Shown: positions 5,822-36,834, numbered from the stretch's first letter. The stretch is DNA of 64,000 nucleotides from Candidatus Shapirobacteria bacterium (GCA_041659325.1 JBAZYN010000003.1:71296-135295), one strand, 5' to 3'. Notes: generated by a model not told the origin, from the letters alone. A program made the numbers and translations.

Positions 5822-5932
5822 GGTTTAGCCGAATTCGAGAATGAGTCCGTGCAATCCAAATCCCTCTTTAATTCTCCCTTTGACAAGGGAGAACATTGAT
5901 TATTGCCAGGGGAGGGTTTAGCCGAATTCGAG
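5822..5932. repeat. 75-bp insert carrying module aaatccctctttaattctccctttgacaagggagaac, flanked by 18-bp direct repeats ggtttagccgaattcgag (5822-5839 and 5915-5932)
   Basis: The second DR copy is the last 4 codons plus stop (LEFG*) of the permease gene. The first copy is an orphan duplicate distal to the insert. Confidence 0.8.
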
Positions 5933-9048: not shown

Positions 9049-10167
9049 TCATTCCGAGGCTTTGCGGAGCTTGGTTATTTTGAATAGATATGGAGAGACA
9101 ATATAGAGAACTTCGAAAGTGGCCACCGATAACTCGAAGGCACTGGGAATGTTGCTAGTAACGATATATGCGCCGATACCAAGAATGACGGCGTTTTTGA
9201 AGGTTTGATCCATCTTGATTTTGTAAACTTTGTTGATTGCCTCTTGAGCGATAGAGGCTTTTTGGGCGGTATCGGAAGCTTTGGCGGCGCCGGTATAACC
9301 AGCGTGGTAGGTTGTGAGAAATGTACCAATGGCGGTGATTAGATTCATGGTACTGTTTTGACGGGTCAAATCCGCCATAAGAGTAACCCCCTGAAAGGAG
9401 GTGGGGAGGTGACGAAGGATAATAGTGGAGAGGATAAAAAGAGTGCCGCTGAAACCACCAATTTTTAGTAACATCCGGTTGTAGTTGATGCGGGCGGAGA
9501 GAATTTTTTTATTGCGCGAAAAGATAAATTTGACAAGGCGCCAAAGAAACCGGCCGAGAACGAAAAACAAAGTCATACCAAGCCAAATTTTGGCGATGGT
9601 TAACCAATCAAGGGCATAACTTTCGGTGACTTTGAAAAAAGGGAGGCGGAAGTCGGTGCCGCGAAGAGGATAGTCGGGATATTTGACGAAATCATAGAGG
9701 AGTTTTGGATCAAGGGGGGTGTTGTAAAAATCGATAAGAAATATCCGGCCGGCGGAAAAGAAGGCAATAGCATTGACAATAAAATTGAAAACATAAAAGA
9801 CGATAGTGGCATCTCCCTTTCTTATCTTTTCGGTAAAGACGAAGTACTGGTCATTTTCTTTGGTATTTTCCAGTAGTTCCTCGAAGACTTTGAGCCTGGT
9901 GTCGAAGAAGTCACCTAAAAGACGGAGAGGCATAAAAGCAAGATTTTGGATAACACCGATAAGGAGGACGGAAACCCAGATTTGGCCGGTAAAGTTGTAA
10001 AGGGTAAAAAAGATACTGGCGTACAAACGAAAGCTGCCGCCGCGGAAAAACCAGATAAAAATGGCAAAAAGAAAAATTATGAGGGCGGAAGTAAGGAGTG
10101 GCAGCCAGAGACGGCTGTTGTCGATATTCCTGATTTTGGAGATTGATTGGTCGCTACCGGTATCCAC
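9049..10167 (-). CDS. hypothetical polytopic membrane protein
   Basis: Multiple TM helices; no secure motif (YidC-like not confirmed). Confidence 0.4.
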   Translation of the reverse strand: MDTGSDQSISKIRNIDNSRLWLPLLTSALIIFLFAIFIWFFRGGSFRLYASIFFTLYNFTGQIWVSVLLIGVIQNLAFMPLRLLGDFFDTRLKVFEELLENTKENDQYFVFTEKIRKGDATIVFYVFNFIVNAIAFFSAGRIFLIDFYNTPLDPKLLYDFVKYPDYPLRGTDFRLPFFKVTESYALDWLTIAKIWLGMTLFFVLGRFLWRLVKFIFSRNKKILSARINYNRMLLKIGGFSGTLFILSTIILRHLPTSFQGVTLMADLTRQNSTMNLITAIGTFLTTYHAGYTGAAKASDTAQKASIAQEAINKVYKIKMDQTFKNAVILGIGAYIVTSNIPSAFELSVATFEVLYIVSPYLFKITKLRKASE

Positions 10168-10261: not shown

Positions 10262-10421
10262 TAAATCCACCCCTATCCCCTCCTTTGAAGAAAGGAGGGG
10301 CACTACTCGTCATTGTGAATGAATAGAGGGAATGTGACGATCTCGTGTTTCTTGCCGTAAACCATGCCTGCCGGCAGGCAGGGATTGCCACTCCGCCAGT
10401 TGGCGGATCGCAATGACGGGG
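10262..10421. repeat. Rep135 composite element, copy 1 (carries an extra ccctgcctgccggcaggcaggg module)
   Basis: aaatccacccctatcccctcctttgaagaaaggaggggcactactc...gattgccactccgccagttggcggatcgcaatgacgg; other copies at 34454, 46075 and 49861, plus a partial at 30056. Confidence 0.85.
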
Positions 10422-10472: not shown

Positions 10473-10826
10473 ATGGCAGAAAATAAAGAAAGACTGGGGG
10501 TAGGTGAAATCGGCGGGAAGCAAGAGACGAGAATGGTGGACGTGGAGACAGCGGCCAGAGCACCATTGCCACGGGAAGTGGAATCGTGGATGGAAAAGGT
10601 GGAAAAAGACCAGACGGTGCAGAAAATTGTGAATGATGACAGGACAGGACAACCGGTGATGACACCGACAGCACCGACGGATCCGGTGATTCAACTACCG
10701 ATAACGAGAGGTACTTTTGCGGCAGGCTTTGGCAAGGCAATAAGCGATGCCGGAAGGTGGCTATCGGTTTTTATTTTCAGAGTGATTAAAATTAAGAAAG
10801 GAAAAGTTAAATTTAAAGACGAATGA
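10473..10826 (+). CDS. hypothetical small protein upstream of, and overlapping, the VirB4-like ATPase
   Basis: 117 aa, hydrophilic with a hydrophobic C-terminal tail; 4-nt overlap with the next start (ATGA). Confidence 0.5.
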   Translation: MAENKERLGVGEIGGKQETRMVDVETAARAPLPREVESWMEKVEKDQTVQKIVNDDRTGQPVMTPTAPTDPVIQLPITRGTFAAGFGKAISDAGRWLSVFIFRVIKIKKGKVKFKDE

Positions 10827-13156
10827 ACCCGGAAACTATTATCAGCCTGGTGACATCAATAATTGTATTTGCATTTATCGGGACGTTGGTGATCCTGCTT
10901 TTGGGATTTTTGGGGTATTTGCTGGTTTTAAGGTATAGATGGAGAGACAGAGAAGCCAAATCACTTGGGATGGTGACGCTGATGGTAGCAGTACCACAGG
11001 ATAATGAGATAAAAATTGATGCCATGGAGCAGATAATTAGCTCGTTTTCGACCATGTACAAAAGCGCCAAGTTTAAATTTTTGCAAACCTATGTAGCCCA
11101 ACCCAATTTATCGCTAGAGATTGTGGGAACGGCGCAAGACATTAGGTTTTATATTTGCACACCGAAAAAACTTCAGGATTTGGTGGAAAAACAGGTTTAT
11201 AGTGTTTATGCCGGGGCTGACGTAAGACAAGTGGATGAGCCAAATATATTTACTGAGGATGGGAAAGTGGAATATGTATGGTTGGCACTAAAAAAGCTGC
11301 CGCATTACCCTTTGAAAACATATAAGGAAATTCCGACTGACCCAATGGCGGCTGTAACTTCGGCTTTGTCAAAACTAAGTACCGGGGAAACGGTGGCGAT
11401 ACAATTGGTACTTTCGCCGACTGACGGCAGTTGGGCAAAGGCGGGGAGAAGCTTTATCAGCAGTACTAAAAAGTCGGAGGCAAACCCGGAGAAGGCCTCG
11501 TATAAAGTGGATGCAAGACAACTGGAGGCGGTGGAGAATAAGGCGGGAAGACAGGGCTTTGAAACGGTAATAAGGATAGTGTCGTGTGCCCCGAGCAGCG
11601 AGGTTGCGAAATTAAATATTTCGAATATTAAGGCATGCTTTGGCCAATTTGAATCACCGTGGAATAAACTGTCGTCTAAAAAAATGTATCTTAAGTCATT
11701 TTTTGTGGATGATTTTATCTATAAATATCCGGTGGTGTATTGGTTTAAAAACAAGACCATATTGTCGACAGATGAGATTGCATCGATTTTTCATTTTCCC
11801 AACAAATCTATTGAAACACCAAATATTTACTGGCTGAAAGCAAAAAAGGCACCGGCGCCGAATGAGGCTGTGCAGGAGGGGCTGTATATAGGCGACAACG
11901 TGTATCGAGGGATAACTAAAAAAGTGTGTATGACAGCATCGGACCGGCAAAGGCATTTTTATATCGTGGGACAAACAGGGGTGGGTAAATCGTGGCTTTT
12001 GGCAGACATGGCGCTACAAGATATTAAAGCCGGGAAGGGGGTGTGCTTTATTGATCCGCATGATACGTTTGAAAGCATATTGGAGAGGATTCCACCGGAG
12101 CGGGTGGAGGATGTGATTTATTTTGACCCGTCGATGGTGAACCGGCCGATGGGCTTTAATGTGATGGAATGTGAGAGAGAGGACCAGAAAGATTTTGTGA
12201 CTAGCTCGATTATTAACCTAATGTATAAACTGTATGATCCTTATAAAACCGGAATTGTGGGACCTAGGTTTGAACATGCAATAAGAAACATTATGTTGAC
12301 GGTGATGGCAGAGCCGGGGGCGACATTTATCGAGATTGTCCGGTGTCTGACCGATCCGACTTATGTGCAGGCAATGCTACCAAAGGTGAACGACCCGATG
12401 GTAAAAAGATATTGGACTGATCAAATCGCCCAAACTTCGGATTTTCATAAATCGGAGGTGTTGGACTATATCGTGTCAAAATTCGGCCGATTTATTACCA
12501 ACACGATGATGAGAAATATTATCGGGCAGTCGACGTCGTCGTTTAACTTTAGAAAAGCCATGGATGAGGGGAAAATATTGATTATTAATTTGGCCAAAGG
12601 GACAATTGGCGAGGAAAATTCGGCCTTTTTGGGATTGGTTTTAATCCCCAAAATTTTGATTGCGGCCATGAGCCGGCAGGATACGCCAGAGGCGAACCGG
12701 AAGGATTTTTATTTGTATGTGGATGAGTTTCAAAATTTTGCCACCCAGGATTTTGCCGTAATTTTGTCAGAAGCCAGAAAATACCACCTTAACTTGATCG
12801 TGGCCAACCAATTTATTTCACAGATGGATGATGAGGTAAAAAATGCCGTTTTCGGAAACGTAGGTACAATTTCGACTTTTAGGGTGGGAGTGGCCGATGC
12901 AGGGTTCTTGGTGCGGCAGTTTCAGCCGGAATTTAACGAACATGACCTTTTGAACCTGGGAACGGGAGAAATTTATATGAAGACAATGCTTAACGGTGTC
13001 CCCCAGTCACCATTCTCGGTGCGGGTGGCGGCGGTGGAAAAGAAAAAACCGGGGAACCCGAAACTGGCGGAGATGATAAAGCAGCTGTCGTCGATGAAAT
13101 ACGGCAGACCGAGAGAGATTGTGGAAGCGGAAATTGCCAAGAGAGCGAGATTCTAG
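10823..13156 (+). CDS. VirB4/VirD4-superfamily (T4SS/conjugation-type, AAA_10/DUF87-like) P-loop ATPase with an N-terminal TM helix
   Basis: Walker A GQTGVGKS near aa 385, Walker B FYLYVDEFQNF near aa 630, N-terminal TM; this architecture and motif spacing resemble VirB4/TrbE. Confidence 0.6.
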   Translation: MNPETIISLVTSIIVFAFIGTLVILLLGFLGYLLVLRYRWRDREAKSLGMVTLMVAVPQDNEIKIDAMEQIISSFSTMYKSAKFKFLQTYVAQPNLSLEIVGTAQDIRFYICTPKKLQDLVEKQVYSVYAGADVRQVDEPNIFTEDGKVEYVWLALKKLPHYPLKTYKEIPTDPMAAVTSALSKLSTGETVAIQLVLSPTDGSWAKAGRSFISSTKKSEANPEKASYKVDARQLEAVENKAGRQGFETVIRIVSCAPSSEVAKLNISNIKACFGQFESPWNKLSSKKMYLKSFFVDDFIYKYPVVYWFKNKTILSTDEIASIFHFPNKSIETPNIYWLKAKKAPAPNEAVQEGLYIGDNVYRGITKKVCMTASDRQRHFYIVGQTGVGKSWLLADMALQDIKAGKGVCFIDPHDTFESILERIPPERVEDVIYFDPSMVNRPMGFNVMECEREDQKDFVTSSIINLMYKLYDPYKTGIVGPRFEHAIRNIMLTVMAEPGATFIEIVRCLTDPTYVQAMLPKVNDPMVKRYWTDQIAQTSDFHKSEVLDYIVSKFGRFITNTMMRNIIGQSTSSFNFRKAMDEGKILIINLAKGTIGEENSAFLGLVLIPKILIAAMSRQDTPEANRKDFYLYVDEFQNFATQDFAVILSEARKYHLNLIVANQFISQMDDEVKNAVFGNVGTISTFRVGVADAGFLVRQFQPEFNEHDLLNLGTGEIYMKTMLNGVPQSPFSVRVAAVEKKKPGNPKLAEMIKQLSSMKYGRPREIVEAEIAKRARF

Positions 13157-13291
13157 GAAAAAACCCTTCCGTCCCGACTAAAGTCGGGACACCTTCCCTT
13201 GACAGAGCAGGCTAATACAAATTTATAATTCCTTAAGGCGGATGCCTTGCAATTTTTCTTTGGCTTCGATAAGCGGAAAATTTTTTCCTGA
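13157..13291. repeat. 135-bp insert flanked by an 18-bp direct repeat of the VirB4-like gene terminus (caagagagcgagattcta at 13138-13155 and 13292-13309)
   Basis: Contains hairpin gtcccgactaaagtcgggac and a ~60-bp segment (13215-13282) about 80% identical to the 3' end of the recombinase gene at 14182-14245. Confidence 0.75.
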
Positions 13292-13347
13292 CAAGAGAGC
13301 GAGATTCTAAGGGGGAATTTAAGAATTTTATTCGCCTACCCTATTTA

Positions 13348-13734
13348 CTAGGATTTTGGCCTTGAGTCGGAGAGACTTTGGGAATCAGGGTTTGTAATAT
13401 CTCGTGAAAAGACCTTAACTCTTCCCGAAATTAAACGGGCAATGCACTTGGATGGTTGTCCTTTTGTGTTTAAAAGGTAGAGATCGACTCTTTCTGGAGC
13501 TAACCGTGTGGCAGCGAAAGTGCCCGGGTGGTTCACTGCATACTGCTCGGCCATATTTGTCAGACCACTATTTGCAACCGAGCAAATTGTGCCGGGATCG
13601 GCGCCCCGATTGGCGATACCGCACATACCAATGTTAAACCCGCCTGGAATCCGATAACATGGATTCCCCGGATAAAAACAATAGGTATACAGTAATTGCA
13701 TTGGTGGAGTAACTTTTCTTTCTGGATCAGCCAT
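13348..13734 (-). CDS. Cys-rich small protein, paralog 1
   Basis: GMCGIANRGADPGTICSVANSGLTNMAEQY aligns to GLCGVSTPQDKGRTFCGRAENGLTTMANSY of the neighbouring ORF. Confidence 0.6.
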   Translation of the reverse strand: MADPERKVTPPMQLLYTYCFYPGNPCYRIPGGFNIGMCGIANRGADPGTICSVANSGLTNMAEQYAVNHPGTFAATRLAPERVDLYLLNTKGQPSKCIARLISGRVKVFSRDITNPDSQSLSDSRPKS

Positions 13735-13785
13735 ATTTTTATTTTATTTTTAAATTTATTATTCTTTTAATTTAATGTGGATGGA

Positions 13786-14163
13786 TTACCGGGTGATTTC
13801 TGGTATCGGAATCTGTTCTTTATTGTTGATGACTCTGCCTGAACGCAGTGTGGCTAACGTAGTAACTCGGTCATGACCAGCGACGGTACAAAGATCGACT
13901 TCTGTATCGTTTACGACAAATGCCGCTACGGGGAGAAGACCTAAATCTTGTCTGTGTGCGGCAAGGTAACTATTGGCCATTGTCGTTAGGCCATTTTCTG
14001 CACGGCCACAGAATGTCCTGCCCTTATCTTGGGGTGTGGAAACACCACATAGACCAATATCTTTATCTCTAAGACAGGCTGTCAATTTAAAACAAGCAGG
14101 AGTTGCTAAAATAACCGTTTTAGTTTGGTCGCCCGTTTTTGCTTCTGGTGAACCATTGGGCAT
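13786..14163 (-). CDS. Cys-rich small protein, paralog 2 (start codon 18 nt after the recombinase stop)
   Basis: Paralogous to 13348-13734; co-transcribed with the recombinase. Confidence 0.6.
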   Translation of the reverse strand: MPNGSPEAKTGDQTKTVILATPACFKLTACLRDKDIGLCGVSTPQDKGRTFCGRAENGLTTMANSYLAAHRQDLGLLPVAAFVVNDTEVDLCTVAGHDRVTTLATLRSGRVINNKEQIPIPEITR

Positions 14164-14181
14164 ATATTTTATTAATAAAAT

Positions 14182-15051
14182 TTATAATTCTTTTAATTTG
14201 ATGCCTTTGGATTCTTCTTTGGCTTCGATAAGCTCCATGTATTTTTCGGTGGTGGAAATGCGCTTGTGACCGACAATTTGGGAAACTACGTCGATGGGAA
14301 CGCCGGATTTTAATTGAAAAGCAATAAAAGTGTTTCGCAAGTCATTGACTTTGATACCCTTGATGTCGGCCTTGTTGAAATAGCGATTTAATAAACTTCT
14401 GATGTTACGGGCTAGAAGGTGACGGCCGGTTTTGGTAACAAAAACGCTTTTGGATTTGCTGTTGTAACGACCTTCATCGAGATATCTTTTTAGAGCTGAT
14501 TTGGCGGAATTGTTTAGAGGAACAGTGCGGACACTGTGACTTTCGTATGAGTCGATGATAATTTCATTGTCTTTGATGTTTTCCAACTTTAGATTTTCGA
14601 TTTCTTTGATCCTTAGACCGGCTTGAAGCATCAGCTCGACAATGGCGGTGGACCGGGCATCATTTCGGCAGGCGTCGCGCAGAGACCGGTATTCAATTGG
14701 TTTTAAAATTTTGGGGACATCATTTTCGTACTTGGGATGTTTTATTTCGGTGGAAGGATCGACAGAGATGAGGCCTTCATTTTTTAAAAAGGAAAAGAAA
14801 TTTTTGATGGAGTTTAGTTTTCGACTGACTGACTTGGCGGTATAGCCGTTTTTCATTAAATCTTTTTTGAAGTTGTCAATATCGGTGCCACGAACGGCAT
14901 CAACTCCGGTGATTTTTGACTGGGCCTTTAAAAAGTGGATCAGCTGATTAATATCACCTTTGTAGGCTACAATGGTGTTTGTGGACTTACCTTTTGTTAA
15001 AAGAGATTTGGTAAAAAGATCCAAGGTGGATTCAAGGGATAGATCGGGCAT
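14182..15051 (-). CDS. tyrosine site-specific recombinase, XerC/XerD-like
   Basis: C-terminal catalytic signature HSVRTVPL...LRNTFIAFQLKSGVPIDVVSQIVGHKRISTTEKYMEL (R..HxxR..Y); 289 aa. Confidence 0.85.
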   Translation of the reverse strand: MPDLSLESTLDLFTKSLLTKGKSTNTIVAYKGDINQLIHFLKAQSKITGVDAVRGTDIDNFKKDLMKNGYTAKSVSRKLNSIKNFFSFLKNEGLISVDPSTEIKHPKYENDVPKILKPIEYRSLRDACRNDARSTAIVELMLQAGLRIKEIENLKLENIKDNEIIIDSYESHSVRTVPLNNSAKSALKRYLDEGRYNSKSKSVFVTKTGRHLLARNIRSLLNRYFNKADIKGIKVNDLRNTFIAFQLKSGVPIDVVSQIVGHKRISTTEKYMELIEAKEESKGIKLKEL

Positions 15052-15123: not shown

Positions 15124-15429
15124 ATGAAATTAATAAGTAATATTTTATTTGGCCTGGGACTGGGGATAATGATAATCTTGAGTCTGGGCAACGTGTGGAG
15201 ACAATATTCCCTTTTGAGGGAGGCAGGGAAAGAAAATAAGGCGCTGGAGGATAAGGTAAGTAGTTTGCAGGATGAAAATAGAAAACTTTTGAGAACTATT
15301 GATTATGCTACCAGTAGCGCTTTTATGGAGAGACAAGCAAGGATACTACTGGGAGTGGGAACCAGTAGGGATTTTTGGATAAAAGGCCTTAAGGAGAAGA
15401 AATACACTGATGAGTTTTTGACTAGATAA
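15124..15429 (+). CDS. septum formation initiator (FtsB/DivIC family)
   Basis: N-terminal TM, coiled coil LEDKVSSLQDENRKLLRTI, MERQARILLG motif. Confidence 0.6.
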   Translation: MKLISNILFGLGLGIMIILSLGNVWRQYSLLREAGKENKALEDKVSSLQDENRKLLRTIDYATSSAFMERQARILLGVGTSRDFWIKGLKEKKYTDEFLTR

Positions 15430-15472: not shown

Positions 15473-15542
15473 TGCGGGGTAGTGTACGGCTGCACGTGAG
15501 GCTCATAATCTCACAGGCCGGGTTCAACTCCCGGCCCCGCAA
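15473..15542 (+). tRNA. tRNA-Met (CAU), initiator-like
   Basis: tgcgggg...ggctcataatctcac...ggttcaactcccggccccgca; closely resembles E. coli tRNAfMet (CGCGGGG...GGGCTCATAACCC...GGTTCAAATCCGGCCCCCGCAACCA); CCA not encoded. Confidence 0.75.
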
Positions 15543-15610
15543 CATTTCACTTGGTAATCGGTAACCAGTAATTGGTAATTGGTAATAAGAAAATGTATCG
15601 GTTTTACTTG

Positions 15611-15639
15611 TTGACAGAAGCGAAAGGCGAAGTTAGAAT
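15611..15639 (+). promoter_or_regulatory. Sigma-70-type promoter (TTGACA, 17 nt, TAGAAT)
   Basis: ttgaca at 15611-15616, 17-nt spacer, tagaat at 15634-15639. Confidence 0.5.
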
Positions 15640-15645
15640 GACTAG

Positions 15646-15716
15646 CGATCTTGGAAACGAGATTTTGCACCCAAATTTTGAAATAGAAAGGTCCTCATTA
15701 ACCTGAGGACTTTTTT
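15646..15716 (+). ncRNA. Candidate small RNA (~70 nt) bounded by a consensus promoter and an intrinsic terminator
   Basis: Predicted TSS ~7 nt after the -10; ends with hairpin gtcctca-ttaacc-tgaggac followed by TTTTTT; no ORF. Confidence 0.35.
15689..15716 (+). terminator. Rho-independent terminator
   Basis: 7-bp GC-containing stem, 6-nt loop, T6 tract. Confidence 0.6.
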
Positions 15717-15719
15717 ATT

Positions 15720-16040
15720 GGAAAATCAAAACCCACTTTTAAATAAAACCCTAACCCTACCCTTTCCCCCACCAAAGGCGGGCAGGCTTGACAGGGCAAG
15801 GGGGAATAAAAATCCAAATCCCTCTTTAATTCTCCCTTTGACCCACCTGCCGGACGAGCTGGTCTTCCTTTGGCCCTCCTACGCCACCGACTTCGCCAAA
15901 GCTACGGCGGGCAAGCAAGGGAGAATTATAAAAATAAAAGAAACTCGATATATTTGGTATAATCACCCTAGTTTTTGGCTCGCCTACGGTAAACCTACGG
16001 CGGGCGAGGCCCTCCCCGTAAGGCTACGGAAGGGCTGGAA
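15720..16040. repeat. Mosaic repeat block upstream of the tRNAs
   Basis: Modules cccttgacagggcaaggg, aaatccctctttaattctccctttgac, cctacgccaccgacttcgccaaagctacggcgggcaag (compare 1-110); includes a TGgTATAAT extended -10 at 15955-15963. Confidence 0.75.
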
Positions 16041-16043
16041 TAT

Positions 16044-16117
16044 GGCAGGGTAGCTCAGCTGGTTAGAGCGTAGCATTCATAACGCTAAGGTCGCGGGTCC
16101 GAGCCCCGCCCCTGCTA
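16044..16117 (+). tRNA. tRNA(CAU), elongator Met or Ile2 (lysidine)
   Basis: ggcagggtagctcagctggttagagc-gtagcattcataacgcta-aggtc-gcgggtccgagccccgc-ccctgct-a; Ile-like backbone. Confidence 0.8.
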
Positions 16118-16202
16118 CAAACAAAACCCACCCGCCCTTCGACAAGCTCAGGGCACCCTCCCTTGAAAAAGGAGGGAAAAGAGGAAAGTTAAAAATTAAT
16201 TA

Positions 16203-16276
16203 GGGCATGTAGCTCAGTTGGTTAGAGCATCGATCTTATAAGTCGAGGGTCCATGGTCCGAGTCCATGCATGCCCA
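16203..16276 (+). tRNA. tRNA-Ile (UAU)
   Basis: gggcatgtagctcagttggttagagc-a-tcgat-cttataa-gtcga-gggtc-catgg-tccgagt-ccatg-catgccc-a; 7-nt anticodon loop cTTATAAa gives anticodon TAT. Confidence 0.65.
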
Positions 16277-16322
16277 CAGTGGGTGGAAAACCTAAATTAA
16301 TTTTTATTTATTTTTCCAAAAT

Positions 16323-17509: not shown

Positions 17510-18720
17510 CCAGGCAGATTGGGAGTTAGAATGCTTTTTGTTTTCGTCCTGTGCTTTTTGGGCCTGGACTCATCAGATCCGGAGAAACCGGATAAACACA
17601 CATCCGACCCACCTGGTGGCTATAAAAAACGCCACCAGGCAGGTCGGGGAACTCGATAGTGCTTGGCCCTCAGGGTCCGAAATTCACCCTAGAGGGCCTC
17701 GGACGCGTGGGCGTCGGTGCTACGGGGTGTAGCAGTGCGTCTGGGCCCAGAGGGTGTTCGACCTATCGACCAACTGGACATCCCAAGGGGGCTGTCGATT
17801 GTGACCGGGGGCGACGGTAAACTCGAACTCATTGTTCGACAACCATCGGTAGGAACACGGTTCCACACCCTCCCACAAAAGCAAGGCCCAATCCTCACCC
17901 GAGCTCCGCGGTAGCGGGGGCAAGTTGACCCGAATGCGGACGCTCCAGGGCACGTGGTGCCGGAAAGAGAAGACCACGCCGGGCCAACCCTCATGGTTGG
18001 GCCTGAATTCACGGGTCTCAACCTCCGTACCGCCGACGAACAAGGTCGCACTCGCGCTGCCCGGGCAGCCCTGGCATAGGACGCCAAGGAAGGAACGGCT
18101 GTTCCTTGGGGGCGGGGGGGGCGGTGGGGTGACCGGGGGGGTCAACGTGACCGGCGGGTTGGTCGGAGTGGCCGTGATCAGCGTCATCGGCGGGGTCGGG
18201 GTGGCCGAAGGGGTGGCCGAGGTCGTGGGCGTGTTGGTCGGGGTGGCCGAAGGGGTGGCCGTGGTCGTGGGGGTCGGCGACGGGGTGGCCGTGCGGGTCG
18301 GGGTACGGGTCGGCATGCAGTGGCGGATGTTCTCCTCCTGGATATTGATGGTGGAGGAATTCGCCACAATGCCATTCGGCCCTTCGAAGCGGATGCTGTA
18401 GACGCCCGGCTGCGCGATCCTCGTGAAGTGGGGGTCCTTCCCGGGTTTGGTGCAGCCTTCGCTGAGCGTGATCGACCGAGAGGAAACGACCTGGCCATCC
18501 CTAATGAGGGACAGAGTACCAGTGACCTTTTCGGTCGAGCATACACGGGCCCACATCGTCAGATCCTCGTAGCAGTCCCACCCTTCGGCGGGAATGGTGA
18601 CGACCGGCGTCTCGGCGGACACGACCGAAGAGTCCCGGAGGGATACTCCCACCAGGACGGCGAGGGCGATGATGCCCAAGAGCAACGCGGCGGACACGAT
18701 CTTTTTCCCGTTCATGAGAT
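17510..18720. other. High-GC (~60-65%) island in a ~42% GC background
   Basis: Abrupt composition shift immediately after the stop at 17507 and before 18720; the antisense strand is full of spurious long ORFs, as is typical for high-GC DNA. Confidence 0.8.
17720..18715 (-). CDS. secreted/membrane-anchored protein with a Pro-Thr-rich linker (high-GC, foreign-looking gene)
   Basis: Signal/TM MNGKKIVSAALLLGIIALAVLVGV; PT linker PTRTPTRTATPSPTPTTTATPSATPTNTPTTSATPSATPTPP...PPPPPPP; C-terminal Cys-containing domain. Confidence 0.7.
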   Translation of the reverse strand: MNGKKIVSAALLLGIIALAVLVGVSLRDSSVVSAETPVVTIPAEGWDCYEDLTMWARVCSTEKVTGTLSLIRDGQVVSSRSITLSEGCTKPGKDPHFTRIAQPGVYSIRFEGPNGIVANSSTINIQEENIRHCMPTRTPTRTATPSPTPTTTATPSATPTNTPTTSATPSATPTPPMTLITATPTNPPVTLTPPVTPPPPPPPRNSRSFLGVLCQGCPGSASATLFVGGTEVETREFRPNHEGWPGVVFSFRHHVPWSVRIRVNLPPLPRSSGEDWALLLWEGVEPCSYRWLSNNEFEFTVAPGHNRQPPWDVQLVDRSNTLWAQTHCYTP

Positions 18721-19007: not shown

Positions 19008-19670
19008 ATGGGTGAGCCATTGGCAGATCGTTTTGGAAGGTTATTTGGAAGAGGTGCAAAGCCACAAGGGACGGTGGCGGTTGGACTAAGTTCTGCTCGG
19101 GAGCCCTTGCTACAGACAGTTGCCGCCGAAGGGGCACCGCCGAAGAATGGAATAGAGGTGGCTCTGGCATCCGCAGCTTTTCAAAGATTGAGAGAGCGAT
19201 TTGGAACAAGGCCAGAAGTGGCAGAGACGGGGTTTGGGAAAGACGATTTAACAGTGGGGGATTTGGTGGATATATTGGATTTATATTTGACGGCGAGAGA
19301 TGATAAGGGTATGGGTTTTGCACCTGTGGCCGAGATGGTCGTCGATACAATTTCTGAAGCAACGTGGAAGGAAGAGTGGAATCAAGAACTTACTAAGCTG
19401 CATAAAGCGAGTAAAACAGGCGGGCTAGACAGGCAAAGCCCACTTTATGCGCTATCGGTTGGTTTGGATAGAATCACCAATCCTTCGAGGGTTAGTGGGG
19501 GTGAATTGAGCCACCACCCGGGAGGGATAACGATTGACGGAAAGTCTCCATTATCTACCAATAGATATCAAGTGATGTTGACAAACAGAGGTCAACAGGA
19601 TAATGGTCTTCCAATAAAGGATGTTTTTGTGAAAGCCGGACTACCGGTGGACAGCAACATTAGAATGTAA
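19008..19670 (+). CDS. hypothetical protein (lies between the nuc 3' fragment and the intact nuc gene)
   Basis: 220-aa ORF; no motif recognised. Confidence 0.5.
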   Translation: MGEPLADRFGRLFGRGAKPQGTVAVGLSSAREPLLQTVAAEGAPPKNGIEVALASAAFQRLRERFGTRPEVAETGFGKDDLTVGDLVDILDLYLTARDDKGMGFAPVAEMVVDTISEATWKEEWNQELTKLHKASKTGGLDRQSPLYALSVGLDRITNPSRVSGGELSHHPGGITIDGKSPLSTNRYQVMLTNRGQQDNGLPIKDVFVKAGLPVDSNIRM

Positions 19671-24733: not shown

Positions 24734-25903
24734 ATGGAAATAATCAAAATTAACGACAGTTACGAAGAAATTATTAAAAGGACGGCTGAAACGATAAGGG
24801 GCGGCGGACTGGTGATATTCCCATCGGATACGGTATATATTTTGGCGATGGATCCGACAAATGTTGATGCGACAAAGAAACTTTTGGCGTTTAAAAACCG
24901 CTGGGTGGGAAAGGCAATTTCGGTGGCAGTGGCGGATACTAAAATGGCCAAAGATTATGTAGAACTATCGGAAAACGCTGAAAATATATATGCTAACTTG
25001 CTACCCGGACCATTTACGGTAGTAAGCAAGGGAAAACATAAAATGGCGAGCGGGATTGAGGCGGAAAACGGGACTTTGGGGATAAGAATCCCCGATAACA
25101 AATATATTCACGATTTGGTGACAGCCATTGGGAAACCGGTAACGGCGACATCGGCTAATCTGTCGGGGCGGACACCGCATTATTCTATCGAGAGCTTTTT
25201 GAAAACATTGTCGCAGAAAAAGAGGGACATGATTGATTTGATCGTTGATGCGGGGAAACTGCGGTTTAATAAGCCGTCGACAGTTATTGATGCCACTGAG
25301 CCGGAAATCAAAATTTTGAGGCGAGGCGACCTGATTACTGCTAATTCTAAAACTTTGATATCCAAATCGGAAAAGGAAACGGGGAAGATTGCGGAGTTTA
25401 TATTGAATAAATCCCTAAATCAAAATCTACCCCTATCCCCTCCTTTGACGAAAGGAGGGGCACTGCCATTAGTATTTGGACTGAGTGGAGATTTGGGATG
25501 CGGAAAGACAGTGTTTTCGAGGAGTGTGGGGAAAATATTGGGGGTTAAAGAAAAAATCACTAGCCCGACATTTGTGATTATGAATGAGTATGATATCAGT
25601 CTGAAAGTCCAAAAGTCTGAAAGTCTGAAAGTTGGACAGCCGGTTAGTCTGAAAGTCCAAAAGTCTGAAAGTCTGAAAGCCGGGAAGTTTTTACATTTTG
25701 ATTTGTATAGAATCGGAGGCCAGTTTGAATTGGAAGAAATAAAATTTTGGGAACAGTTCAAACCGGGAACCGTGGCTTGTATTGAGTGGCCGGAAAATAT
25801 GGGAAAGGAAAATTTTGAGAAATTGAAAAAGATGACGAATTATAAGGCAATAAACTTTGAATATGTGAACGAGAGAACAAGAAAGATAAGTTATGAGATG
25901 TAA
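24734..25903 (+). CDS. L-threonylcarbamoyladenylate synthase (TsaC/YrdC domain) fused to tRNA t6A protein TsaE
   Basis: YrdC domain ...VTATSANLSGR...; TsaE P-loop GLSGDLGCGKTVF, SPTF, HFDLYRI; two in-frame repeat insertions in the TsaE half. Confidence 0.85.
   Translation: MEIIKINDSYEEIIKRTAETIRGGGLVIFPSDTVYILAMDPTNVDATKKLLAFKNRWVGKAISVAVADTKMAKDYVELSENAENIYANLLPGPFTVVSKGKHKMASGIEAENGTLGIRIPDNKYIHDLVTAIGKPVTATSANLSGRTPHYSIESFLKTLSQKKRDMIDLIVDAGKLRFNKPSTVIDATEPEIKILRRGDLITANSKTLISKSEKETGKIAEFILNKSLNQNLPLSPPLTKGGALPLVFGLSGDLGCGKTVFSRSVGKILGVKEKITSPTFVIMNEYDISLKVQKSESLKVGQPVSLKVQKSESLKAGKFLHFDLYRIGGQFELEEIKFWEQFKPGTVACIEWPENMGKENFEKLKKMTNYKAINFEYVNERTRKISYEM
25423..25463. repeat. Palindromic module aaatctacccctatcccctcctttgacgaaaggaggggcac inserted in frame in tsaE
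   Basis: Same module opens the Rep135 copies; encodes NQNLPLSPPLTKGGAL just before the TsaE P-loop. Confidence 0.9.
25598..25679. repeat. 9-bp tandem repeat (agtctgaaag/gtccaaaag units) inserted in frame in tsaE
   Basis: Encodes LKVQKSESLKVGQPVSLKVQKSESLKA between EYDIS and GKFLHFDLYR; the same unit family is intergenic at 7003-7050 and 61960-62080. Confidence 0.85.
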
Positions 25904-28574: not shown

Positions 28575-29783
28575 GTGTTTTTCGATTGGATTTCGCGGGA
28601 AGAGACAAGGCCAGGGCGGTATAATAGGCGGATGATTGTACTGGCAATAGAAACAAGTTGTGACGATACGTGTGCGGCGGTGCTAGAAAATGACCGGATA
28701 TTGTCGAACGTGGTTTCGTCACAAATTAACCTACATGCCCAGTGGGGCGGAGTGGTGCCAGATATTGCCAAAAGGGCGCATATGGAAAGAATTATGCCGG
28801 TGGTGATGACAGCTTTAAAAAGGGCAAAATCCCTCTCGGCTTCGCCGCTTCTCCCTTTGACAAGGGAGATGGAAAAATTGATGAATGAAATTGATGTGAT
28901 TGCGGTGACGGTGGGACCCGGGCTAGCGCCCGCTTTGGGAGTGGGAGTGAATACTGCCAAAGAACTGGCAATAAAATACAAAAAAAAACTGGTGGCGGTA
29001 AACCATGTGGAGGGGCATATTTTGTCCAACCTGGCAAAAAACAGGAAGGGAAAACCGGAGAGAGAGATCGAGTACCCTGCCCTAGTACTGACGGTTTCGG
29101 GAGGACATACCAAGATCATTTTGATGAATCAAAATGATCAATTTTCAATTTCTAATTCTCAATTTTTAAAAAATAAAAAAGTACCAAATAAAATAGGTGG
29201 TTTTCAATATCAGGTTGTTGGAGAAACGCTGGATGATGCGGCGGGAGAGGCACTGGATAAGGCAGCAAAATTGATGGGGCTGGGGTATCCCGGAGGGCCG
29301 ATAATTGAGAGGTTGGCGGAGGGCGGAGACCAGAATTTTCTTGAATTACCCAGACCAATGGCAGACAAAAAGATTCTTGACTACAGTTTTTCGGGGCTGA
29401 AAACTAGCTTTTATTACAAGATTAAGGACTGGCCCAAGGATAAGGTGGCCCAAAATTTGCATGACTTGGCGGCAAGCTATCAGGCGGCAGTGTTTGAGAT
29501 GCTTCTCAGAAAATTTAAACTGGCAATTGAAAAATGTGAGCCAAAAAGTCTGATGGCCTGCGGCGGAGTGATGGCAAATGTGACATTAAGAAAACAATTG
29601 CGGATGTTGGCGAGAAAATTTAAGTTGCCGATTTTTATGCCATATACTAAGATTTTGAATACGGATAATGCCGGGATGATTGGGGTGGCGGGATATTTTA
29701 AGGCAATGAGGGGTGAGTTTGTAAAAGATATTGAAGGTTTGGACAGAAACCCGAGAGCACAATTAACAATTAAATTTTTGTAA
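28575..29783 (+). CDS. tsaD: tRNA N6-adenosine threonylcarbamoyltransferase TsaD
   Basis: MIVLAIETSCDDTCAA (likely true start ~28632), HVEGH, SGGHT, DDAAGEALDKAAKLMGL; contains the repeat-derived insert KSLSASPLLPLTRE and an AT-rich low-complexity insert NQNDQFSISNSQFLKNKKVPNK. Confidence 0.9.
   Translation: MFFDWISREETRPGRYNRRMIVLAIETSCDDTCAAVLENDRILSNVVSSQINLHAQWGGVVPDIAKRAHMERIMPVVMTALKRAKSLSASPLLPLTREMEKLMNEIDVIAVTVGPGLAPALGVGVNTAKELAIKYKKKLVAVNHVEGHILSNLAKNRKGKPEREIEYPALVLTVSGGHTKIILMNQNDQFSISNSQFLKNKKVPNKIGGFQYQVVGETLDDAAGEALDKAAKLMGLGYPGGPIIERLAEGGDQNFLELPRPMADKKILDYSFSGLKTSFYYKIKDWPKDKVAQNLHDLAASYQAAVFEMLLRKFKLAIEKCEPKSLMACGGVMANVTLRKQLRMLARKFKLPIFMPYTKILNTDNAGMIGVAGYFKAMRGEFVKDIEGLDRNPRAQLTIKFL
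28827..28870. repeat. Palindromic repeat module inserted in frame inside tsaD (opposite orientation to the valS copy)
   Basis: 44/44 identical to 21938-21981. Confidence 0.9.
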
Positions 29784-36826: not shown

Positions 36827-36834
36827 GTTGGTAA

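Follow-up and report, generated by a model that had tools for sequence, protein, structure and literature searches.

A 64,000-nt stretch of DNA from Candidatus Shapirobacteria (Microgenomates, Candidate Phyla Radiation (CPR)/Patescibacteria; hereafter the window) carries at 10,473–15,051 a small gene coupled to a large P-loop ATPase, a Xer-family tyrosine recombinase that converges on this ATPase and, between the two, a pair of cysteine-rich genes. We found that these are probably three independent neighbours on the core chromosome, namely the ATPase with its partner, the Xer recombinase and a Cys-rich insertion, and not one mobile module. The five open reading frames (ORFs) were first listed in a reading of the sequence (the original prediction), where they were taken as a possible minimal integrative or DNA-translocation module, or a domesticated remnant of one. 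All five ORFs were present as listed, and a solo ATPase of type IV secretion system (T4SS) type with a coupled partner stood up to analysis, but the genes do not appear to be one module or a mobile remnant. Gene neighbourhoods in related genomes displayed a conserved core-chromosome synteny, rpoD-dnaG(-uppS) ... ATPase, xer, ftsB, tRNAs, rplY, leuS, in every Shapirobacteria locus examined, which speaks against one mobile module. Across non-sister Shapirobacteria, identities were 79–83% for the ATPase, 75–82% for Xer, 82–86% for RpoD, 54–60% for DnaG and 55% for LeuRS, and the ATPase is a vertically inherited core gene that is strongly conserved in CPR. Xer and the Cys-rich genes, which had been joined into an operon, were private to this strain as a unit, since a relative with a 92% identical ATPase carries unrelated ORFs in the same place. 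Below, L005 and L006 denote the relatives with this 92% identical ATPase, and L008, L009 and L100 denote relatives that lack the slot between the two converging genes. The genes of the locus and its flank are as follows, with lengths in amino acids (aa).

10473–10826, + strand: 117-aa partner ORF, its stop overlapping the ATPase start (ATGA)
10823–13156, + strand: 777-aa ATPase
13348–13734, − strand: 128-aa Cys-rich ORFan with 5 Cys
13786–14163, − strand: 125-aa Cys-rich ORFan with 5 Cys, a paralogue of the 128-aa protein
14182–15051, − strand: Xer-family tyrosine recombinase of 289 aa, whose last ~19 codons (14178–14233) are the sequence repeated in the slot
15124–15429, + strand: FtsB/DivIC-like septum protein of 101 aa, divergent from xer (DivIC 3.6e-5, below cut-off)
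15473–15543, 16044–16118 and 16203–16277, + strand: conserved cluster of tRNA-Met, tRNA-Met and tRNA-Ile(UAU), the tRNA genes expected just beyond the locus

A database search with the 777-aa ATPase retrieved over 5,500 homologues, among them a Ca. Shapirobacteria protein with 100% identity. The ATPase forms a translationally coupled pair with the 117-aa gene, as had been proposed from the overlap of stop and start codons. An AlphaFold2 (AF2) model built on a 66-sequence alignment (mean predicted local distance difference test score (pLDDT) 86.7) suggests three parts, namely a membrane anchor, an N-domain folded like that of VirB4 and a motor of coupling-protein type, and we encountered no earlier description of this architecture.

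10823–10939, + strand: ATPase residues 1–39, a single long membrane-anchor helix followed by RYRWRDREAK (AF2 helix 3–39; hydropathy above 1.7 over residues 1–38)
10940–11878, + strand: ATPase residues 40–352, DUF8128 (PF26449), with a predicted fold like the VirB4 N-terminal domain
11879–13156, + strand: ATPase residues 353–777, P-loop motor of type IV coupling protein (T4CP) type with an inserted all-alpha domain (Walker A 11969–11992, Walker B 12716–12739)

The long hydrophobic helix at residues 3–39 agrees with the single N-terminal transmembrane (TM) helix read from the sequence beforehand, and by the positive-inside rule the remainder of the protein would lie in the cytoplasm. The Walker A (GQTGVGKS, residues 383–390) and Walker B (YVDEFQNF, residues 632–639) motifs were likewise found where expected, and both occupy invariant columns of the family.

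Placement of the ATPase with T4SS families or with FtsK/HerA had been left to a homology check, and the protein sided with the T4SS ATPases. This supports membership of the motor in the T4CP clade (TrwB/VirD4) rather than in FtsK or HerA. A family profile searched against solved structures matched TrwB at 7.8e-8, DotL at 8e-6 and HerA at 4e-3, with the alignment to TrwB spanning Walker A and the DEFQN...Q..Q region, and FtsK was absent both from this profile search of the Protein Data Bank (PDB) and among the 50 Foldseek matches listed. Homologues 38–64% identical to the window protein carried TrwB_AAD_bind, T4SS-DNA_transf and TraG-D_C. Among 33 diverse homologues, TrwB_AAD_bind and TraG-D_C were both present in 32 and T4SS-DNA_transf in 19; FtsK_SpoIIIE was matched by only six, at 8e-4 or weaker, and AAA_10 weakly by six. 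The window ATPase passed the Pfam cut-off of the generic DUF87 model alone (31.9 vs 23.2), gave no Pfam match to FtsK_SpoIIIE, CagE_TrbE_VirB or AAA_10, and displayed weak TraD, CedD and TrbC matches in NCBIfam; its precomputed architecture was DUF8128 + DUF87. Consistent with the profile results, the C-terminal half of the model superposed on TrwB (Foldseek target-normalised TM-score (TMt) 0.63–0.67; root mean square deviation ~4.3 Å), with a helical bundle (helices 453–567) inserted between the two Walker motifs, like the all-alpha domain of coupling proteins. HerA structures fitted worse than TrwB (TMt 0.38–0.53), no NurA-like gene was detected, and the N-domain fitted VirB4, not HerA.

With the T4CPs (TrwB of R388, VirD4, TraD/TraG, DotL) the ATPase thus has in common the motifs RH-x-Y-x-x-G-x-TG-x-GKS, DEFQN and Q...Q, the inserted all-alpha domain and a membrane anchor. 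Unlike them, it has a ~310-aa DUF8128 N-domain, predicted to be cytoplasmic, between anchor and motor, one TM helix rather than two, and the standing of a core gene instead of that of plasmid or integrative conjugative element (ICE) cargo. The single TM helix also sets it apart from FtsK/SpoIIIE with their polytopic N-terminus. Pfam scans of ~50 window ORFs matched no T4SS component besides the ATPase, as the original prediction had stated, and no relaxase or mating-pore family was found in these scans or among the called genes of related loci, another difference from T4CPs; this negative is not absolute because patescibacterial T4SS parts are divergent.

Since the best Foldseek matches of the whole protein were TrwK/VirB4 (E 3e-15, ~880 aligned columns), we modelled residues 40–352 alone (pLDDT 88; predicted TM-score (pTM) 0.87). 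The 13 best PDB matches of this DUF8128 domain were all TrwK/VirB4 chains (E 1e-6 to 2e-5; TMq 0.42–0.50), and apart from these no solved structure matched under 7e-4. The ATPase therefore resembles VirB4/TrwK in its ~800-aa two-domain layout, in the small gene directly upstream and in the N-domain fold match (E ~1e-6). Unlike VirB4/TrwK, it lacks sequence-level membership in that family, its partner is not a membrane protein, and the monophyletic patescibacterial VirB4 near dnaA is a separate protein. The DUF8128 fold also strongly matched Bacillus phage G gp156, Slash and JL (TMq 0.72–0.73). SPO1 gp27.4 and phage G gp156 (PHROG 5156, uncharacterized) share the DUF8128-plus-motor architecture (PHROG 5156 match 2.9e-87), and tblastn aligned SPO1-like and phage G homologues over residues 93–773 at ~21% identity (N-domain fold TMq 0.72). 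The SPO1 homologue (FJ230960.1 92636–95356; L102 3791–6511) is preceded by several 48–73-aa ORFs, like the coupled upstream ORF of our pair. These phage proteins differ from the CPR family in residing in large Bacillus myophages and in their low identity.

The ATPase family comprised 21,316 clusters at 50% identity (E ≤ 1e-3) and spanned Microgenomates, Saccharibacteria, Dojkabacteria, WWE3, Berkelbacteria, Parcubacteria and Peribacteria. The pair belongs to an already catalogued family (DUF8128; orphan T4CP homologues). A survey by Quinonero-Coronel et al. (2025; PMC12102498) detected T4CP homologues in 2,918 and VirB4 in 2,417 of 3,035 Patescibacteria genomes. In that survey only 148 of 5,713 T4CP homologues lie near virB4, the canonical monophyletic VirB4 of Microgenomatia lies near dnaA/dnaN, and exaptation of T4CP homologues "cannot be ruled out". 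Our ATPase lies between rpoD/dnaG/uppS and xer/ftsB, therefore it is not the canonical VirB4 and fits the orphan T4CP class, with whose members as described there it shares the phylum, the annotation class, a position far from virB4 and near-universal occurrence. Most likely, it represents in this lineage the near-universal "orphan T4CP homologue" class of Patescibacteria. The passages of the survey consulted make no mention of DUF8128 or a VirB4-like N-domain, of a coupled upstream ORF or of the xer/ftsB synteny; our genome accession was not in its Table S3, and the ATPase was not matched to any row of that table. Within the family, one locus (L049, 1128–6163) carries two tandem ATPase paralogues, some CPR copies (L047, L057 and L067 among the loci noted) have C-terminal extensions to 1,000–1,570 aa, and one member carries a T4SS_pilin Pfam domain.

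An ORF ended within −150 to +60 nt of the ATPase start at 73 of 84 loci. At least 49 of these upstream ORFs fell into four families, one in Microgenomates, one in Saccharibacteria and two in Parcubacteria groups. Common ancestry of the partner families across CPR classes was rejected (hhalign probability 0.1–0.3%). The same position is thus held by four families without detectable homology, which indicates a partner that is conserved by position and fast-evolving. Within Shapirobacteria, partner orthologues were 41–74% identical, and a C-terminal motif, LP[IL]T...RWL..[FW]..R..K, was conserved across Microgenomates. The 117-aa partner had no match in Pfam, NCBIfam (including the VirB3 family) or PHROG, and no TM segment was predicted in it. 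Divergent from the partner–ATPase pair, at 9049–10167 (− strand), lies a 372-aa polytopic membrane protein with at least five predicted TM segments and no Pfam or NCBIfam match, whose position is kept only in Shapirobacteria (54–79% identity).

By analogy with TrwB and VirB4, the ATPase would assemble as a membrane-tethered ring that spends ATP feeding a polymer (DNA or unfolded protein) to a membrane partner. This partner would most likely be the chromosomal Patescibacteria T4SS encoded elsewhere; otherwise the ring may have a T4SS-independent housekeeping role. The small upstream protein may act as a lineage-specific adaptor. From motifs and likeness to these relatives, we prefer a membrane-tethered ring translocase as the probable mechanism.

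The recombinase carries Phage_integrase (PF00589, 4e-28) and SAM-like (PF02899, 8e-14) domains, and its closest solved structures were 4a8e (Xer-family, deposited as probable XerC-like) and XerD 1a0p. NCBIfam matches (E 1e-47 to 3e-44) all scored below the equivalog cut-off, with 162.5 for XerD (cut-off 329.6), 159.2 for XerC (335) and 151.6 for XerA (220). Xer orthologues were 75–90% identical in Shapirobacteria and shared a conserved C-terminal ...L.EL tail. Both catalytic Arg residues, the second His and the Tyr are present, and the first catalytic His is replaced by Asn (VNDLR for HxLR) in all distinct orthologues aligned (22 of 22; L001–L050). The gene converges on the ATPase and diverges from ftsB/divIC at 25 of 87 loci, plus three of three further ones, in Microgenomates and Dojkabacteria, and ftsB adjoins xer wherever all three genes could be located (22 loci), with DivIC called on the orthologues.

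Most simply, this recombinase looks like the lineage's housekeeping chromosomal Xer. The original prediction had set a canonical XerC/D near dif against its own reading; the housekeeping part of that alternative agrees with our results, but nothing puts Xer at dif. A search of the window with the dif consensus returned chance-level matches only, with a divergent dif elsewhere being possible, and GC skew was positive across the whole window without a switch; a dif site at xer therefore seems unlikely. In a closed Woesebacteria genome the locus lies at 170–186 kb of 902 kb (~19% of the record). Paired divergently with ftsB/divIC, Xer presumably serves chromosome or replicon resolution at division. 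It is a two-domain tyrosine recombinase like XerC/D and the single-recombinase Xer systems (archaeal XerA, XerS, XerH), and as in the latter a single conserved chromosomal copy stands beside a division gene. Unlike these systems, it falls below the NCBIfam equivalog cut-offs, has Asn for the first His, and has no dif-like or terminus signal found nearby.

The Cys-rich genes are a recent, strain-private ORFan insertion into the hypervariable slot where the ATPase and xer converge. From stop codon to stop codon, this slot ranged from an overlap of a few nt in three relatives that have no genes in it (L008, L009 and L100) up to 2,210 bp. Slot cargo was unrelated between lineages and mostly consisted of ORFans, with exceptions including an MFS transporter, a GNAT acetyltransferase and a CDP-alcohol phosphatidyltransferase. 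The two proteins of the window are weakly but genuinely paralogous, as had been recognized (29% identity over 89 aa; pairwise E 5e-7), and five cysteines align (19/26/38/51/97 vs 24/30/39/52/92). Of the shared motif given as NGLT[NT]MA, the 125-aa protein has an exact copy, while the 128-aa protein reads SGLTNMA. The 128-aa protein matched only itself among 5.8 billion proteins, and neither protein had a match in Pfam, NCBIfam, PHROGs or phage genomes. The five cysteines form no CxxC pairs and there is no signal peptide, thus there is no clear pointer to zinc binding or secretion. The annotated frames were the best of six by codon usage (a weak signal), the first Cys-rich gene starts 18 nt from the xer stop, the spacing on which the operon had been proposed, and GC skew over the two genes was 0.02–0.09 vs 0.15–0.34 on either side, which is atypical for the window.

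Partial copies of both flanking gene ends were found in the slot, alongside a hairpin.

13171–13190, just past the ATPase stop: hairpin GTCCCGAC-TAAA-GTCGGGAC with a perfect 8-bp stem, from reading of the sequence
13219–13274, − strand: distal pseudo-copy of the xer 3′ end, 56 nt, 82% identical to 14178–14233, which still encodes LIEAKEKLQGIRLKEL followed by a stop
13289–13309, + strand: pseudo-copy of the ATPase 3′ end, 20 of 21 nt (95%) identical to 13135–13155
13752–13787, − strand: middle pseudo-copy of the xer 3′ end plus leader, 36–39 nt, 83–87% identical, between the Cys-rich genes

The hairpin is likely a terminator, and an analogous hairpin occurs at the same place in L005. The distal xer copy aligned with a score of 67 (maximum of 31 in 300 shuffles), the ATPase 3′ pseudo-copy with 37 (shuffle maximum 25) and the middle xer copy with 51. 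The distal copy lies at an orthologous position in L005 and is closer to the xer allele of L005 than to that of the window itself, which fits incoming DNA replacing the extreme xer 3′ end. In L005 and L006, ORFans of 93 and 335 aa are bracketed by repeats of the xer 3′ end, one a perfect copy of 59 nt and another of 20 nt; the closest relative, L005, has the same scar design around different cargo.

From these scars, we propose that a recombination event within the last ~20 codons of xer brought in the Cys-rich genes. Such an event would have restored the conserved C-terminus of Xer and left behind pseudo-copies of the xer and ATPase ends. Being co-oriented with xer, the inserted genes would probably be read through from it. 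We favour illegitimate or homology-facilitated recombination, combined with selection keeping both gene ends intact, because the repeat boundaries vary, no inverted-repeat core was seen, and the junction has AAGC microhomology and a co-duplicated ATPase 3′ end. Also in the slot, at 13199–13229 (+ strand), is a TTGACA-19 nt-TATAAT element whose −10 box is the reverse complement of the (pseudo-)xer stop region; the same arrangement is conserved in L005 at 10350–10395 (TTGACA-19 nt-TATAGT). This element could serve as an antisense promoter or belong to a dispersed CCCTTTGAC motif.

We weighed three other accounts of the ATPase and its neighbours. A T4CP-type motor adjoining a tyrosine recombinase, with tRNA genes close by, is the usual look of a decayed ICE, and the cargo beside the recombinase is variable, yet a single mobile module made up of ATPase, partner, recombinase and Cys-rich genes, whether a minimal integrative or DNA-translocating one or a domesticated remnant of it, is highly improbable. 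The idea is largely refuted by synteny, since ATPase, xer, ftsB and tRNAs keep one order between rpoD/dnaG and rplY/leuS in all Shapirobacteria loci examined; moreover, the ATPase and Xer are as conserved as RpoD, no repeats surround the whole block, neither a relaxase nor another T4SS gene appeared in the window Pfam scans, and the GC content of the ATPase–xer block (0.41–0.49) is within the range of the window, with positive GC skew throughout. It is also quite unlikely that the ATPase is a membrane-anchored DNA pump working with Xer and the divisome (FtsB) in FtsK-like dimer resolution or segregation. In favour of this role, loci of Microgenomates and Dojkabacteria alike keep the convergent ATPase/xer/ftsB layout, down to 43–47% ATPase identity, only RpoD exceeds the ATPase and Xer in conservation within the neighbourhood, the ATPase is in the same superfamily as FtsK, and a regular-expression scan for FtsK Walker motifs in 1.28 Mb of CPR DNA, a sample biased to this locus, found only the ATPase family. 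However, the ATPase/xer linkage is absent from Saccharibacteria and Parcubacteria loci, the two genes are convergent and not an operon, and the window has no FtsK_SpoIIIE match in its ATPase, no dif-like site and no skew switch. Since most Patescibacteria bins are reported to encode FtsK/SpoIIIE (PMC10469934) and an ftsK is annotated in TM7x, we down-weighted replacement of FtsK by this ATPase. An origin as a divergent VirB4-type assembly ATPase with a VirB3-like partner, forming a second minimal secretion or pilus motor, draws on the first rank of TrwK/VirB4 in the whole-protein Foldseek search and on the N-domain alone, for which VirB4 was the one kind of solved structure to reach E < 1e-4. 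Two domains over ~800 aa, the upstream small gene and the N-terminal TM helix likewise recall the known VirB3–VirB4 pairs and fusions (PMC12102498). We regard this origin as unlikely all the same, since there is no CagE/TrbE/VirB Pfam match, AAA_10 is weak in six of the 33 homologues, the motor motifs and best profile matches are those of TrwB and DotL, the small partner has neither a TM segment nor a VirB3-family match, and a distinct monophyletic VirB4 is already present in Patescibacteria (PMC12102498).

The cargo could alternatively have been captured as cassettes by Xer at an attachment site in the xer 3′ end, making the slot an integron-like platform, or one akin to integrative mobile elements exploiting Xer (IMEX). 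The cargo genes of both genomes share the orientation of xer, and a pseudo-copy of the xer 3′ end comes after every one of them; the newest insertion, beside xer in L005, has perfect 59-nt repeats, the repeats are 83–100% identical vs 29% aa identity of the paralogous cargo, and events recur within the same ~60 nt in two genomes. Integron arrays and IMEX at dif similarly have small integrase-less cargo beside a tyrosine recombinase gene, each bounded by one repeated sequence, with the newest cargo adjoining the recombinase; three repeat copies are present in the window and in L005. Unlike in those systems, the repeat here is the recombinase gene's own 3′ coding end, with varying boundaries, we recognized no core site, and only two genomes show the pattern. 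Six copies compared by eye shared no inverted-repeat core, and the window junction, with its AAGC microhomology and its co-duplicated ATPase 3′ end, is in keeping with DNA uptake followed by illegitimate or homology-facilitated recombination. Selection for intact overlapping gene ends would alone enrich duplicating insertions, and other filled slots are scar-free, with cargo often on the opposite strand. We therefore consider cassette capture doubtful, and the fuller version, in which the last ~20 xer codons are the attachment site and promoterless genes are captured serially, presumably by Xer, and expressed by xer read-through, improbable. A phage or plasmid attP with xer 3′ sequence was sought in IMG/VR and rejected: a 17-mer gave 11 matches whose extended similarity of ≤22 nt was judged chance, and a 23-mer gave none.

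Several observations weigh against our account of three independent neighbours and the roles we assign to them. In Pfam, the window ATPase itself fell just below the cut-offs of TrwB_AAD_bind (19.3 vs 20.5) and TraG-D_C (18 vs 22), and the DUF8128 profile had no sequence-level match in the PDB, its VirB4 likeness being one of fold only, with modest TM-scores (0.42–0.50). A simple T4SS-coupling role is argued against by the t4cp homologue of Southlakia, reported as non-essential though the T4SS is essential, and by T4CP homologues being commoner than VirB4 (PMC12102498). The scars were found only in the window's sublineage (2 distinct genomes of ~14 Shapirobacteria-like filled-slot loci), and their boundaries differ, at about codon −7, −9, −19 and −21 of xer. 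As for the Cys-rich genes, paralogy and the weak codon-usage signal suggest that they may be protein-coding and expressed, and the short spacing from xer suggests that they may be co-transcribed with it.

We also noted other features of the window. A noncoding RNA search of the region found tRNAs only. Compared with L005 and L001, ~460 nt of extra DNA (15545–16043) separates the two tRNA-Met genes. A motif at 15811–15842 recurs at 5853, 25902, 29891 and 48986 and another at 15551–15590 recurs at 36828, 7098, 29777 and 46734, all intergenic, and a near-consensus promoter lies at 15611–15639; the recurring motifs may be dispersed regulatory repeats or resemble miniature inverted-repeat transposable elements. 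The tRNA-Ile at 16203–16277 has the anticodon UAU and stands next to two CAU tRNAs, which suggests that AUA may be decoded without lysidine modification. The segment 17400–18900 has 53–68% GC vs ~44% elsewhere in the window and includes, at 17720–18715 (− strand), a 331-aa Pro/Thr-rich protein with an N-terminal hydrophobic segment. This gene and the next (19008–19670) had no tblastn match in L005, thus the segment looks like another strain-specific insertion. A single 389-aa ORF at 24734–25903 joins a Sua5/YrdC (TsaC) domain to a TsaE domain as a fused t6A-synthesis protein, and TsaD is encoded at 28575–29783.

CPR bacteria account for a large share of bacterial diversity and have tiny genomes. 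A membrane ATPase class that ~96% of CPR have kept, with conservation as tight as that of the sigma factor, must have a central task, and it is a concrete target in two cultivable, genetically tractable Saccharibacteria systems. A T4CP-type motor with a VirB4-like N-domain, unlinked to a T4SS, would also be informative on the divergence of VirB4 and VirD4. The scars beside it are a small but clean case of strain-specific genes being added to reduced genomes at one fixed site. Were the insertions recombinase-driven, they would represent a new gene-capture mechanism, and capture at the xer end, if true, would be an integron-like platform in CPR that explains the hypervariable ATPase/xer junction across Microgenomates.

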